Assembly: GCA_944386655.1 (NCBI GenBank) | Contig: CALXBX010000009.1 | Coordinates: forward strand, 2,465 to 66,464 | Source of the DNA: an uncultured Clostridia bacterium | Lineage (GTDB): Bacteria; Bacillota; Clostridia; TANB77; CAG-508 | DNA length: 64,000 nt | Direction: 5' to 3' | Part shown: piece by piece, positions 59,400-63,361 of the stretch | How the letters are laid out: the number at the start of each line of letters is the position of its first letter | Numbering within the stretch: the first letter of the stretch is position 1 | The notes under the pieces: model-generated | Database searches by the model: none | What the model was told of the DNA's origin: nothing | The model's input: the letters and a program-made list of their open reading frames with translations, nothing else | Translations under genes and position numbers: made by a program

Positions 59400-59813
59400 A
59401 TGAAAAAAGTAGTAGCGAGTGGGTTGATAGTCATAGCAATTTTTATCAGTATTATATGCAACACTACTGTTTTTGCAACTAACGAAGTAAATGAAGTAGG
59501 GGAAGGAACAGTTAGCCAATTAGTAGAGATGAAAGATAAGGAAGAAAAATCTTTGCAAGATTACCAAGAAGCTTATGGTTCAGATGCTTATGGATTAACA
59601 GCATACATATTAAATAAAGTACAAATTTATAGTATTCCTTTTTGCTTTGTAGGAATTGCCATTAGTGCTATTTACCAATATGTATTAGGTATTAGAAAAT
59701 TAGATACGAGAGATAGAGGTTTTGCTATCATGATATCTATTATTACTATTTTTATAATTGCACAAGTGTTACCATTAATATTTGCGATTGTTGTAAAAGG
59801 TTGGAGGGGTTAA
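59400..59813 (+). CDS. small membrane protein (signal peptide plus two C-terminal TM segments)
   Basis: 137 aa; RBS AAAGGGG; ends 4 nt before the next gene. Confidence 0.6.
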   Translation: MKKVVASGLIVIAIFISIICNTTVFATNEVNEVGEGTVSQLVEMKDKEEKSLQDYQEAYGSDAYGLTAYILNKVQIYSIPFCFVGIAISAIYQYVLGIRKLDTRDRGFAIMISIITIFIIAQVLPLIFAIVVKGWRG

Positions 59814-59817
59814 ACAA

Positions 59818-62241
59818 ATGAAAGTTTTATTTGCAGTAAGTAATGAGAATATTTCTAGTTCCATTGTTAAAAAATATCAACAAATGTATAAAGAAATCAT
59901 TTCTTATAAAAATGTTTATTACTTTAATGCAATACTAAAAGAGTTACAGAAAGATAAAACATATGATAGAATTGTCATTAGTGAGGATTTAGAGCCATTT
60001 GCAAATAATAATTATGAAACAATTGACAATTTTATTTTTGAAAAATTAGACAGTATTTCTGATGAAGCATCCAATAGTCAAGGAGAAGATATTCCTATTA
60101 TATTAATTGCAACGGATAGGAGAACAAAGTCAGAAAGTTTATTAATTAAACTATTTGGTATAGGTGTTTATAGTACATTAATTGGACAAGATAGAAGTAT
60201 AGAGCAAGTTTGTAATTTAATTTATAAACCTAGAACCAAAAAGGAAGCAAAAGTATACTATCAAATTGATTCTAATCAAGTAGAGTATAAGCCAGAAGAA
60301 GAAGTAAGTGAAGTAGAAATTCAAAATATCTTAGCACATTATAAACGTTTAGGTAGGAACGAAGAAAAATATGTGGAAAGTTTTGATAGTATTGCCTCTC
60401 AATATACAGATGAACAATTAAGAATTATTATTGGCTTTTTACCACTAAATGTAAAAGCAGTTCTAGAAGAAAGAAGCCCAAAATATCAACAAGTCATGAC
60501 ATTCTCTGGTGTAAAACCTAAAAAAGGAACTACAAAGAGAATAGAAGATATGGAAAAAACAAAGTCAAAAGGTAGAAGAAAGGGCGGAGAGGTAAAACTT
60601 CCTGATGATGGAGGAATTAAAGTAGAATCTATTGTAGATAAAGCAGTAACTAAAAGAATGACAAAACCAGTAGTAATTCCGTCAGGCGTATCCACTAAAA
60701 ATGTAAAAAAAGTGGAAAACACAACAAAAAATCAAGAAAATAGAATACAACAACCTATAATGCAAGAAGAGAAAAAAGAAGAAACAATCGAGCAACCAAT
60801 AGTAGAAACAAAACAACCGACTGTAGCAGAAGTACAAGAAGAAGTATCTGTAGCAACACCACCAAAACGTGGAAGAGGAAGACCAAGAAAGGTACAACCA
60901 GTGGTAGAAGAACAGAAAAAGGAAGAAATAGTAGAAGAGCCAGTTGTGAAAAGAAAAAGAGGAAGACCAAGAAAAATACAGCCAGAACAAGCTATGCAAG
61001 AAGAAACTACTTTACCAGGGTTAGAACCAGAAGAACAAGAAAACCAGGTTATATTACCAGGAATAGATGACGAGGAAGAAACAACAACTACTATGCTACC
61101 AGGAATGGAAGAATCAGAAGAAGAAACAACTACACTTCCTGGTTTTGACGAAGAAGAGGATACAGAAGAACAAAGCCAACCAATGTATCATCCACAAGAA
61201 AATAGCTTACCAGGATTGGATGATGAGGAAGAAGAAATACAAGAAAATCCATATCCAAATGAAGACGAAGATACTTATCACAATACAGCAATGACAAATA
61301 GCCAATATCAAGGCAGTATAGATATAGAAAATTTATTAACACAAGAAAAGAAAATTGTAAGTTTTGTGGGAACCTCTAAAAACGGAACCTCTTTCCTTGT
61401 AAATAATATGGCACAAATGTTATCGGAACAAGGTATTAGAACAGCCATTTTAGACTTAACACAAAATAGAAACGCTTATTATATCTATACAAAAAATGAA
61501 GAAGATTTAAGAACAGTAGCATTTGAATGTATGGCAAGATTAGTACAAGGAGAAGCAAAAGGAATTAAAGTAAATGCTAATTTGGATGTATATACTTCTC
61601 TACCAGGAGAAGATGCAGGAGTAGAAAATGAACAAGCAATTTTATCTACTTTGTTAAAATATTACGATTTAATTTTATTAGATTGTGACTTTGCATCACC
61701 ATATGGATATTTAGCTAATAGCCAAGAAATTTATCTAGTACAAAGTATGGATGTATTAACAATTCAGCCACTAACTGCATATTTAAGAGATTTAAAAGCA
61801 AAAGGTATTTTAGAACAAGAAAAACTAAGAATTGTAGTAAATAAATATACAAGAGTAAGAGGTATTACAGAAAAAACAATTATAGGGGGAATGGCATATT
61901 ATAATGATCCTGCCATGTCCTATATGACAGAGTTATTTAATAGAGAAAGTGTAAAATATTGTATAGTACCATTTGAAGTACAAACTTATGCAAAATATTT
62001 AGAAGCATTAGTAAATTGTGAAATATCCCTTAAAGGTTATTCTAAAGAATGCATGAACTATTTTAGAAAATTAGCGAATATGGTATATCCTTTAGTAAAT
62101 AATCAAGATTCCAACAATAAAAAGAAAAAAGGCAAAAAAGAGAAACCAATTTTCAATCAATATGAAAAAAACAGTAATTATAAACCACAATTTTCTAATC
62201 AAATGAATGATACCTTAAATAGAATGAAAAAATACGAATAA
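59818..62241 (+). CDS. TadZ/CpaE-like protein: receiver-like N-domain, disordered linker with two AT-hooks and five acidic LPG repeats, degenerate MinD/ParA-like C-domain
   Basis: 807 aa. N-terminus MKVLFAVSNE...RIVISEDL. KRGRGRPRK and KRKRGRPRK. LPGLE/LPGID/LPGME/LPGFD/LPGLD. C-domain VSFVGTSKNGTSFLV...LILLDCDF... Confidence 0.7.
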   Translation: MKVLFAVSNENISSSIVKKYQQMYKEIISYKNVYYFNAILKELQKDKTYDRIVISEDLEPFANNNYETIDNFIFEKLDSISDEASNSQGEDIPIILIATDRRTKSESLLIKLFGIGVYSTLIGQDRSIEQVCNLIYKPRTKKEAKVYYQIDSNQVEYKPEEEVSEVEIQNILAHYKRLGRNEEKYVESFDSIASQYTDEQLRIIIGFLPLNVKAVLEERSPKYQQVMTFSGVKPKKGTTKRIEDMEKTKSKGRRKGGEVKLPDDGGIKVESIVDKAVTKRMTKPVVIPSGVSTKNVKKVENTTKNQENRIQQPIMQEEKKEETIEQPIVETKQPTVAEVQEEVSVATPPKRGRGRPRKVQPVVEEQKKEEIVEEPVVKRKRGRPRKIQPEQAMQEETTLPGLEPEEQENQVILPGIDDEEETTTTMLPGMEESEEETTTLPGFDEEEDTEEQSQPMYHPQENSLPGLDDEEEEIQENPYPNEDEDTYHNTAMTNSQYQGSIDIENLLTQEKKIVSFVGTSKNGTSFLVNNMAQMLSEQGIRTAILDLTQNRNAYYIYTKNEEDLRTVAFECMARLVQGEAKGIKVNANLDVYTSLPGEDAGVENEQAILSTLLKYYDLILLDCDFASPYGYLANSQEIYLVQSMDVLTIQPLTAYLRDLKAKGILEQEKLRIVVNKYTRVRGITEKTIIGGMAYYNDPAMSYMTELFNRESVKYCIVPFEVQTYAKYLEALVNCEISLKGYSKECMNYFRKLANMVYPLVNNQDSNNKKKKGKKEKPIFNQYEKNSNYKPQFSNQMNDTLNRMKKYE

Positions 62242-62263
62242 AACACAAACGGAGGTGTAGACT

Positions 62264-63361
62264 TTGATTATAGCAATTATTATACTATTAGTTGTTATTA
62301 TTGTTTTCTTAATGCTATATAATATGTCTATTCATAAAAAAATAGATACCTTTAATAATATCAATCAAAAAATTACAAGTTTAAATGTATTGCAAGATTT
62401 TATGGATACGATTAGTGAAGAAAAATCAGCAGATAGCAAAATACAAAAAATTAATGAGATATTAATTGAAAAATATGATATTAAGTATTCTACCATTGTA
62501 GTATATGATGGGGCAGAATATATTATAAAGGCTACTAATGTAGACGAAAAGCATTGGGATACATTAAAAAGTCTACACAAAGAACCAATTTTCCAAGATA
62601 GTATACAAACAGCTACACCAAAATATATTACAGTAGAAAAAGAGGGAGAAAGACTACCTTATCAAAAAATGGAATTTGGGAGAGCAAAGTCAGCTATGTT
62701 CTTTCCTTTATATATAGATAACGTATATATTGGCTACTGGATTATTGAAAGTGGAAAACCTCATGACTTTGATGGAATAGATACTACTATTTTAGAAGTA
62801 GTAAGAAACAACATCGTAGCAGTATTAAAAACATTAGATAATCAACAAGTAATAGAAAATATTGTAAGAGAAGACTTATTTACAGGATTAAAATCTGCTG
62901 AATATTTATATGGAGAAGGTAAAAGAAAGATAGATAAATATACTACTTCAGCCATTTGTATGTTTACTATTATGAATATAGAGGATATTAACGAAGAATA
63001 TGGAAGACATACTGGAAACGAAGTAATTAGAAAAGTAAGTGAATTAGTAAAACAAAATATTGCATCAGAGTATGTTTTTGTACGATATATGGGACCAAAG
63101 TTTGTGATTGTATTTTCTGGTATAGACATAGAAGATGTAACAGATTTTATGAATCAATTAAAACAGAAAATAGAAAATATGGAAGTAGAGCAAGCAGAAG
63201 AAGATTTGTACGAAGATGAAGAAGCACAAGTAGTAAAACCTAAAATTAATGCTGTTATGACTACTTATTATAAAGGAACGGCTATGGAAGGAGTTACAAA
63301 AAAATTAGAAGAATATTTAGATCATGCAGACAAAAAGGAAAGTGCAGTAAATTGTATCTAA
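62264..63361 (+). CDS. membrane-anchored GAF-like plus degenerate GGDEF-domain protein
   Basis: TTG start after GGAGGTG; N-terminal TM segment; EDLFTGLKS...[12 protein letters not shown]...[11 protein letters not shown] (MGPKF in place of GG[DE]EF). Confidence 0.65.

Follow-up and report, generated by a model that had tools for sequence, protein, structure and literature searches.

Within a stretch of 64,000 nucleotides (nt) from an uncultured Clostridia bacterium (GenBank assembly GCA_944386655.1, contig CALXBX010000009.1; the whole stretch is referred to as the window, and coordinates are those of the window), three adjacent genes encode a small membrane protein, a central TadZ/CpaE-like protein and a membrane protein with a degenerate GGDEF domain. 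We find that this locus is a conserved, operon-like and lineage-restricted module of uncultured gut Clostridia, whose relatives include TANB77/CAG-508 genomes, and that its central protein is a divergent TadZ/CpaE-type protein which has left the tad locus, has lost the Walker lysine and, in this clade, has gained an HMGA-like linker. The genes and signals of the locus are the following (ORF, open reading frame; aa, amino acids).

59400-59813, + strand: gene for the small membrane protein, ORF of 137 aa
59818-62241, + strand: gene for the central TadZ/CpaE-like protein, ORF of 807 aa
62264-63361, + strand: gene for the degenerate GGDEF protein, ORF of 365 aa with a TTG start
63381-63638, + strand: ireB, IreB/ReoM family phosphoprotein (PF06135, E 1.4e-40; NF003997)
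58437-59219, - strand: sigK, divergent from the module (NCBIfam SigK, E 2e-94)
59314-59342, + strand: candidate sigma-70-like promoter TTGCTA-17-TATTAT, a 9/12 match to the consensus in the 180-nt region between sigK and the module

The three ORFs share one orientation and are separated by 4 nt (small to central) and 22 nt (central to degenerate GGDEF), with coordinates exactly as first annotated, and a further 19 nt lie between the degenerate GGDEF gene and ireB. Good Shine-Dalgarno sequences precede the small gene and the degenerate GGDEF gene, the latter being GGAGGTG placed 7 nt upstream of the TTG start. Sigma-70-like matches around the module are no more frequent than in shuffled sequence. 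Between 58400 and 64000 a terminator scan returned a single terminator-like hairpin, at the end of sigK, and none inside or after the module (hence none before ireB); an Rfam scan of the same region found no element or riboswitch in or upstream of the module. The G+C content across the window ranges from 0.25 to 0.38, and no compositional anomaly was found in the module beyond the linker of the central protein. As for sigK itself, its ORF extends some 24 codons beyond the SigK family models, through the terminator-like hairpin (58483-58516), and overlaps the 3' end of a GH3 (NagZ-like) gene (57374-58474); together with spoVAD (9309-10313, - strand; E 7.5e-154), sigK indicates that sporulation genes have been kept.

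Synteny was counted by tblastn of the window proteins against the best 80 related loci, all of which belong to uncultured Clostridia metagenome-assembled genomes (one labelled Lachnospiraceae), L031 among them being Candidatus Merdicola faecigallinarum, family CAG-508, order TANB77 (PMC13106387). Conservation of the neighbourhood, which the initial annotation had named as a check, is evident: a homologue of the small protein is present at 78 of the 80 loci, the degenerate GGDEF protein at 79 and ireB at 77, the misses being contig ends, and the order small-central-degenerate GGDEF-ireB is constant, with ruvX and DUF1292 after ireB. Moreover, the small gene stops a few nt upstream of the central start in essentially all of these loci. 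The block is conserved but its upstream flank is not, since the U32, DUF368 and GH3 genes are kept in only 10-14 of the 80. The position opposite sigK, recorded correctly for the window, proves to be no property of the module: sigK adjoins it in 21/80 loci and in either orientation, so that linkage to sigK was rejected as a module feature, and since deeper relatives retain just the small and central genes with ireB-ruvX-DUF1292, the adjacency is incidental.

Relatives of the central protein occur in at least 523 stretches of one-genome-per-species GTDB contigs, and there are thousands of unnamed metagenome homologues. With the N-terminal domain as query, 344 representative clusters were recovered at a limit of E 1e-3 and 152 at 1e-30, which indicates that the family is small. 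Among 83 full-length representatives, drawn from a search of 1.84 billion cluster representatives, two subfamilies are seen.

Subfamily I, which includes the window protein: P-loop GTSKNG[TVI]SF; mostly two AT-hooks; linker made of hooks and acidic repeats; tail FSxxMNxTLxKMK
Subfamily II: P-loop GAxKxGTTF; no AT-hooks; linker rich in Pro/Gln or PKVE; MinD-like tail (KKGLFG, KGGFWRK)

The contexts of deep-branching members, listed by locus, are these.

L086: upstream, small homologue; downstream, degenerate GGDEF gene (32% identity, RYLGPKF), then ireB-ruvX-DUF1292
L088: upstream, PBP5 and small homologue; downstream, ireB-ruvX-DUF1292 without a degenerate GGDEF gene
L089: upstream DNA absent from the contig; downstream, ireB-ruvX-DUF1292 without a degenerate GGDEF gene
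L091: upstream, small homologue; downstream, ireB-ruvX-DUF1292 without a degenerate GGDEF gene
L094: upstream, ORF of 106 aa; downstream, ireB-ruvX-DUF1292 without a degenerate GGDEF gene
L085: upstream, PBP5-type carboxypeptidase and small homologue; downstream, miaA-like gene
L090: upstream, small homologue; downstream, contig end

The small homologues in L085, L086, L088, L090 and L091 were recovered with a family hidden Markov model (hmmsearch, E 8e-9 to 4e-27) as well as by BLASTP. From these contexts it follows that the conserved core is the pair of small and central genes, nearly always directly upstream of ireB, and that the degenerate GGDEF gene, which is absent from subfamily II contexts, is an addition of one subfamily; the description as a three-gene module thus holds for the subfamily of the window and contracts to two genes in deeper relatives.

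The constant neighbour downstream raises the question of a role in envelope growth or division. The ireB-ruvX-DUF1292 block trails the module in nearly every context that reaches downstream (L085 is the one exception), directly and at short distances with no terminator, the degenerate GGDEF gene lying in between in this subfamily, and IreB/ReoM homologues regulate cell-wall synthesis in other Firmicutes. The central protein could then be a scaffold that acts with IreB/ReoM, RuvX and the DUF1292 protein and recruits or sequesters peptidoglycan factors via its linker, replacing or supplementing Min/Noc-type systems. We consider this quite unlikely, since the block is a widespread housekeeping one whose synteny is weak evidence, and no domain known to act in division or to bind peptidoglycan occurs in the module. 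In L085 and L088 the gene immediately before the module encodes a PBP5-type carboxypeptidase, in keeping with an envelope role, but a PBP5/Peptidase_S11 gene also lies directly 5' of a TANB77 Tad cluster (L093), so that this kind of gene, found directly before the small and central genes in the one case and before Tad genes in the other, does not discriminate between the readings. An ancestral order PBP5-small-central-Tad, suggested by L085, L088 and L093, was considered and not adopted; L091 and L094 have other upstream genes, and it stays a loose lead.

The central protein is built of folded parts at either end of a long disordered linker, as follows (pLDDT, predicted local distance difference test; AF2, AlphaFold2).

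59818-60222, + strand: receiver-like (beta-alpha)5 domain, residues 1-135, from the AF2 model and Foldseek
60310-60501, + strand: five-helix domain, residues 165-228, pLDDT 76-91, the most confident part of the N-terminal model
60865-60897, + strand: AT-hook 1, KRGRGRPRKVQ, residues 350-360
60949-60981, + strand: AT-hook 2, KRKRGRPRKIQ, residues 378-388
61003-61317, + strand: acidic block, residues 396-500, net charge -34, no Lys or Arg, five LPG[LIMF][DE] repeats
61330-62103, + strand: ParA/MinD-fold domain, residues 505-762, AF2 pLDDT 70-88
61369-61395, + strand: atypical P-loop GTSKNGTSF, residues 518-526, with Thr524 at the Walker-A Lys position
62191-62232, + strand: C-terminal amphipathic helix FSNQMNDTLNRMKK, residues 792-805, after a KKKKGKK patch, helical in the AF2 model

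In alignments of homologues the N- and C-terminal domains show dozens of invariant columns. The full-length AlphaFold model is confident only for residues ~505-760, and since it was poor for the N-terminal domain (pLDDT 30-58), residues 1-235 were modelled separately, with 90 sequences and a mean pLDDT of 72. In Foldseek the receiver-like domain of this model matched response-regulator receivers and the CpaE N-terminal domains 4myr and 4dn6 (E 7e-4 to 2e-2, TM-score to target ~0.6), and neither TadZ_N nor Response_reg (PF00072) of Pfam matched the central protein; the receiver-like assignment is therefore supported at the level of the modelled fold only. Of the residues that mark a phosphorylatable receiver, D57 and T99 are kept; the acidic pair is missing, beta1 leading into S-N-E instead, and no Lys follows beta5. 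The best matches of the whole N-terminal model are regulators that join a receiver to a helical DNA-binding domain (ARR1, FixJ, VpsT), but at a large root-mean-square deviation.

The C-terminal domain is better placed. Against the Protein Data Bank (PDB), Foldseek returned ParA, Soj, MinD, FlhG, FleN and BcsQ (E 3.5e-8 to 1e-5, probability 1.0, TM-score to target 0.6-0.73), and the ParA/MinD-like nature of the modelled domain is confirmed by fold. The TadZ/CpaE layout of a receiver-like and a MinD/ParA-like domain, as initially proposed, is upheld. At the level of sequence the signal is faint: Pfam CbiA falls below threshold on this domain (E 0.018), AAA_31 gives no match, and PDB sequence searches with the single sequence and with a profile returned only low-complexity and adenylate-kinase P-loop noise and no ParA; an NCBIfam MobA/MobB P-loop match (E 0.027) was judged spurious.

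The spacing of the P-loop fits GxxxxGK[ST] with Thr in place of Lys, and G-x-x-K-x-G-[TVI]-[ST]-F is found in all 83 full-length representatives. Whether aligned pairwise or by profile, Thr524 falls opposite the invariant GKS Lys of a sister family described below; the remaining invariant Lys of the P-loop is shifted by two positions, and the DxD switch reads D-L-T. In a gap-free alignment with the P-loop of Escherichia coli MinD, both MinD Lys positions are Thr in the central protein. These features bear directly on the possibility of classical ATP-driven positioning of the ParA/MinD kind, in which the protein would form a gradient or oscillator on the nucleoid or membrane with an unrecognized activator partner. 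The ParA/MinD fold, an amphipathic tail as in MinD and FlhG, and the DNA-binding motifs all speak for such a cycle. Since the Walker-A Lys is absent family-wide, with it and the signature Lys displaced in 83/83 representatives, and considering also the D-L-T switch, the want of a MinE/ParB-like partner at the loci and of any sequence-level match to ParA in the PDB, we regard it as extremely unlikely. MinD and FlhG themselves share with the central protein the fold and, as predicted for the latter, a C-terminal amphipathic helix, the subfamily II tails (KKGLFG) resembling the MinD membrane-targeting sequence, but the central protein lacks KGGxGK[ST] and has an extra N-terminal domain and linker; searches at this and related loci (not across whole genomes) found no MinC/MinE, DivIVA/MinJ or flagellar partners. 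From ParA/Soj it differs in a P-loop without the Walker Lys and in having no ParB-like neighbour.

The hydrophobic moment of the tail helix is 0.56, a value that ranks at the 97th percentile within the protein and that only 1.1% of shuffles attain, and the C-terminal tail is conserved among relatives, which makes it a candidate membrane-targeting or partner-binding peptide.

The disordered linker of ~270 residues (233-500) consists of a basic block (233-395; net charge +13, pI 9.9) that holds both AT-hooks, followed by the acidic block. The RGRP cores of both hooks are invariant (in 28 and in 90 sequences) within an otherwise variable linker, while Pfam AT_hook stays below its cut-off (E 0.011, score 15.9, cut-off 17.4). 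With RGRP cores, Lys/Arg flanks, more than one copy and an acidic tract, the linker qualifies, as a sequence motif, as AT-hook/HMGA-like, and the AT-hooks of the initial annotation stand. HMGA and Myxococcus CarD likewise set RGRP cores with basic flanks beside a strongly acidic tract, but the central protein has two hooks only, embedded as a linker in a MinD-like scaffold, and its acidic tract carries LPGF repeats. AT-hooks are present in 55/83 representatives and in none of the other 28. The LPG[LIMF][DE] repeats are conserved as motifs, up to 11 being counted among representatives, and no tandem repeat was found in the linker at the DNA level; P0053 (941 aa) and P0077 (1169 aa) have many more LPGF-type repeats than the window protein, and the idea that these two are fusions with neighbouring genes was rejected, since they merely have longer repeat-rich linkers. 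A literature search for AT-hook plus ParA proteins in Firmicutes found nothing relevant.

The nearest relatives of the central family lie on plasmids. A tblastn search of plasmid sequences revealed a sister family of 530-546-aa hypothetical proteins on plasmids and conjugative elements of Clostridium botulinum and C. beijerinckii (for example WP_264647532.1). The two families align over 435 columns with all three folded parts in order (hhalign of A1 against A4, the Clostridium plasmid proteins; probability 99.2%, E 2.7e-19), and they are reciprocally nearest, the best non-self relatives of the sister family being the central family. The sister proteins keep GKS, share the conserved helical domain and have a short linker without AT-hooks. 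Their gene comes first in a Tad-type cluster, followed by a SAF/CpaB-like gene and genes for a 266-277-aa P-loop protein, an ATPase (named TadA/CpaF in the sources), a membrane protein of ~665 aa, the size of TadBC, a 137-aa pilin-like protein and a cell-wall hydrolase; this following, and the lack of a small two-transmembrane partner and of the ireB context, set the plasmid proteins apart from the central family. The initial annotation could match the module to no described system, and indeed neither the central nor the small protein falls into a family of the curated libraries (Pfam, NCBIfam, PADLOC, PHROGs, PDB sequences); the sister family at the head of Clostridium plasmid Tad clusters nevertheless supplies a relative with known partners. 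The Tad-like clusters of L083 (8001-16374), L084 and L092 (7001-15095) also hold a second degenerate P-loop protein (SGWHGRGNTS; SPLHGRGNTS in L083). In addition, a NikA-like gene lies near the cluster in L092, and the Clostridium Tad-like cluster may encode a mating pilus.

Since the sister family resides on plasmids and conjugative elements, and its cluster in L092 sits beside the conjugation genes VirB4, TrbL and PrgI, it might be asked whether the module is a remnant of a conjugative or phage element, or an anti-phage defence. We find this scarcely credible, and it is already largely refuted: the chromosomal position is fixed, with vertical inheritance in at least 523 species; PADLOC has no match for the module, and in PHROG the small and central proteins have none, only the GGDEF domain matching families, all of unknown function; a phage collection has no match for the N-terminal domain and a plasmid collection none for the C-terminal domain or the small protein; and composition is unremarkable outside the linker.

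Among MinD-like proteins, TadZ/CpaE and BcsQ serve as landmarks for machines of the envelope (PMC11407121), and published TadZ proteins have a Walker-like K/RGGxGxS/T without a second Lys (bioRxiv 10.64898/2026.07.08.737194). With TadZ/CpaE the central protein shares an N-terminal atypical receiver-like domain, a C-terminal ParA/MinD fold and a Walker-like loop without the canonical Lys, and it is homologous over its full length to the family that heads Tad-type clusters. It differs in that its gene lies outside a tad locus and not next to tadA/cpaF, in the long linker with AT-hooks and acidic repeats between the domains, in a P-loop (GTSKNGTS against K/RGGxGxS/T) whose Lys is shifted by two positions, in the C-terminal amphipathic helix, in the dedicated small-membrane and degenerate GGDEF neighbours and in matching neither TadZ_N nor AAA_31.

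The initial annotation also held that no Tad or pilus secretion genes accompany the module. This is correct locally: no Tad genes were found among the scanned ORFs of the window (all those of at least 300 aa and a few shorter), nor any T2SSE, CpaB or TadBC gene within 7-10 kb of the module in L081, L086, L088, L091 and L094. It is a local statement only, because ~95% of TANB77 species are reported to have one Tad cluster elsewhere, in which CpaB is joined by a pair of short ParA-like proteins (231 and 280 aa), by TadA, by fused TadC/B and by pilins; CAG-492 sp000434335 and sp900553225 are reported to be without it (PMC11680825). An example in L093 (6423-19896; GCA_947631415.1) comprises a CpaB-like protein of 342 aa, proteins of 235 and 270 aa, a TadA-like protein of 631 aa, one of 686 aa and a run of small proteins. 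Its short ParA-like proteins gave no significant match to the central family, and none of its proteins resembles the small or the degenerate GGDEF protein. The window does contain a gene for a prepilin (type IV leader) peptidase of 250 aa (21593-22345, + strand; Peptidase_A24, E 7e-20), which stands alone with no pilus genes nearby and fits a TANB77 Tad pilus.

The TANB77 Tad cluster thus has no receiver-bearing TadZ, whereas the related plasmid clusters start with one, and this makes a serious rival of the proposal that the central protein is the receiver-bearing TadZ of the Tad pilus of this lineage, encoded away from the cluster, where it would dock or position the Tad machine, with the small and degenerate GGDEF proteins serving it as receptor in the membrane and as source of signals. 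In favour of this, the layout is shared with the sister family at the head of the plasmid clusters, the prepilin peptidase gene is in the window, and degenerate GGDEF proteins commonly regulate surface structures. Moreover, the TANB77 cluster starts at CpaB and its two ParA-like proteins are too short for a receiver domain (PMC11680825), and in Bdellovibrio the receiver function of TadZ resides on a separate protein (bioRxiv 10.64898/2026.07.08.737194). We nonetheless hold such a TadZ acting in trans to be doubtful: the module never adjoins tad genes at the 80 loci or in the seven deeper contexts, its synteny with housekeeping genes is stable, its proteins are similar to no Tad-cluster protein except the sister family, subfamily II may occur in lineages without a Tad cluster, and AT-hooks have no obvious role in positioning a pilus.

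The small protein has hydropathic segments at 1-28, 74-98 and 105-136, with the predicted topology of a signal-peptide-like N-terminus, ~50 extracytoplasmic residues, a transmembrane (TM) helix, a 10-residue basic loop (RKLDTRDRG) and a second TM helix, and its second half is the conserved part. This is the topology of VirB2/TrbC-type pilins, to which no sequence similarity was found. Comparison with pilin-like proteins of 137-138 aa and with all Tad-cluster ORFs likewise showed no similarity; Pfam, PADLOC and PHROG contained nothing, and three weak NCBIfam matches were judged spurious.

In the degenerate GGDEF protein a TM segment (residues 1-27) precedes a sensor domain and a GGDEF fold (204-355).

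62366-62848, + strand: sensor domain, possibly GAF-like, residues ~35-195
63083-63103, + strand: degenerate motif RYMGPKF, residues 274-280, in place of RxGG[DE]EF

The GGDEF fold is clear (PF00990, E 7.9e-11; TIGR00254, E 6e-13; PDB cyclases, E 5e-9), so that this half of the proposed GAF-GGDEF architecture is secure; the GAF half is weak, GAF_2 being matched by 5/18 family members with a best E of 0.014, and a PDB profile search with the sensor domain gave no match. Against the cyclase 6zxb, RFGGEEF becomes RYMGPKF, a motif retained in 79/80 relatives, and the metal-site IDIDK becomes FTIMN, with the first metal-binding Asp replaced. The position of the RxxD I-site, five residues before the GGDEF position, reads ASEY (family consensus S-x-E-Y), while the guanine-contacting Asn of the INxxYG motif is kept. 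Judged by these motifs, the protein cannot make cyclic di-GMP (c-di-GMP), as was initially proposed, and is without the usual receptor I-site.

Loss of catalysis would still be compatible with a receptor of c-di-GMP (or of GTP/ATP) that controls the scaffold, after the manner of PelD, BcsE or YdaK. PelD has a TM-GAF layout, and the order TM, possible GAF and degenerate GGDEF matches its architecture; the GGDEF fold is clear, and the guanine-contacting Asn is retained. PelD itself is cited as a degenerate-cyclase receptor (PMC7439463). We judge this reading very unlikely, since the protein lacks the RxxD I-site on which PelD, BcsE and YdaK rely, GG[DE]EF and the metal-binding Asp are lost, these reduced genomes may make no c-di-GMP at all, and the gene is missing from subfamily II, which marks it as an accessory. 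Like PelD, YdaK and GdpS, the protein is anchored in the membrane and joins a sensor domain, which in PelD is a GAF domain, to a GGDEF fold that is not catalytic, but there is no I-site, the GAF call is weak and no exopolysaccharide operon is present. The same parts list is offered by cellulose secretion of the E. coli type, where the MinD-like BcsQ acts with the degenerate receiver (REC)-GGDEF protein BcsE and the small membrane protein BcsF, so that BcsQ-BcsR-BcsE-BcsF unite degenerate receiver and GGDEF domains with a MinD-like protein and with a small membrane protein that brings the complex to the membrane (PMC7439463). BcsQ is among the Foldseek matches, with no sequence homology found beyond the fold; it binds ATP through a normal P-loop, and in the module it is the MinD-like protein, and not the degenerate GGDEF protein, that carries the degenerate receiver, RxxD is missing and there are no cellulose synthase genes.

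Taking these observations together, we tentatively favour, at somewhat less than an even chance, the reading that the module is a non-hydrolysing TadZ-type membrane scaffold which in this clade binds AT-rich DNA and serves as a spatial landmark or organizer at the pole or septum. The MinD-like domain would act as a dimerizing scaffold, at most binding nucleotide and without ATPase cycling, and the amphipathic tail and the small membrane partner would together keep the central protein on the cytoplasmic side of the membrane, while the receiver-like domain and the linker would recruit cargo. In this clade the two AT-hooks may bind the AT-rich chromosome (~30% G+C) and so bridge nucleoid and membrane, with the acidic LPGF block either masking the hooks or providing multivalent docking sites. 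The degenerate GGDEF protein, presumably neither a c-di-GMP maker nor a sensor through a canonical I-site, may use its sensor domain to pass a signal to the scaffold, in the manner of PelD and BcsE in their own systems. The likeness to the Bacillus tethers Noc and RacA is one of proposed mechanism only, namely binding of the chromosome and of the membrane or pole; there is no homology and the DNA- and membrane-binding parts differ.

Several considerations weigh against this scaffold. DNA binding, membrane binding, dimerization and interaction among the three proteins are inferred, the scaffold comes without a named cargo, and it leaves unexplained the constant position before ireB-ruvX-DUF1292. 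The receiver-like call depends on a model of medium confidence and on weak Foldseek E-values; the invariant Lys that the P-loop retains, shifted by two positions, might yet allow nucleotide chemistry; and the tail, just at the 97th percentile, could be a partner-binding peptide. Since 28 of the 83 representatives are without hooks, nucleoid tethering cannot be the general function of the family. The membrane-tethered, nucleoid-binding positioning module of the initial annotation is therefore reasonable but unproven: nucleoid binding falls away as a general feature, and an ATP-driven cycle is unlikely. By weight, the rivals discussed above run from the Tad organizer in trans through the envelope or division regulator with IreB and the nucleotide receptor to the ParA/MinD cycle and, last, the mobile-element remnant. 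A bolder form of the favoured scaffold, which we hold to be unlikely, is that the small and central proteins constitute previously undescribed hubs, MinD/TadZ-derived pseudo-ATPases that are free of hydrolysis and independent of pili, and that in TANB77 these tether the nucleoid to the membrane via the HMGA-like linker and are tuned by a dead-GGDEF sensor.

Other genes of the window were noted in passing. A division-hydrolase cluster (31260-36002, + strand) encodes FtsX, a CtpB-like PDZ/S41 protease and a tandem pair of PcsB-like proteins, which are coiled-coil/M23 peptidases of 417 and 390 aa. At 47112-48242 (+ strand) lies the gene for a 376-aa coiled-coil protein with weak filament/crescentin-like Pfam matches only, and a comparable gene for 384 aa lies ~9 kb downstream of the module in L081 (21169-22323). 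One ORF of 448 aa (49259-50605, + strand) fuses a cytidylate kinase (5-218) to a PlsC-type acyltransferase (260-385). The CTP synthase ORF (16670-18007, + strand) has just 445 aa, with a GATase match at 3-95 of 190, and may reflect truncation, a frameshift or an assembly error. ORFs at 19259-20953 (564 aa), 3297-4544 (415 aa) and 13024-13947 (307 aa), all on the + strand, have no Pfam match at E up to 1e-3.

Finally, the module appears to be close to the core gene set of TANB77, and it is nameless in the curated libraries. By way of its Tad pilins, TANB77, a prevalent gut order that is still uncultured, has been connected with the response to checkpoint immunotherapy (PMC11680825). If the central protein organizes the Tad machine in trans, the module would supply a regulatory component so far missing from a surface structure that is under clinical discussion. 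If it is instead independent of pili, a TadZ-type landmark would have been turned into a hydrolysis-free scaffold of DNA and membrane, and its bacterial HMGA-like linker would join the few prokaryotic AT-hook proteins; and should the module prove to be a hub of pseudo-ATPases, it would represent a new solution to chromosome and membrane organization or to control of the division site in an abundant uncultured gut lineage with reduced genomes.

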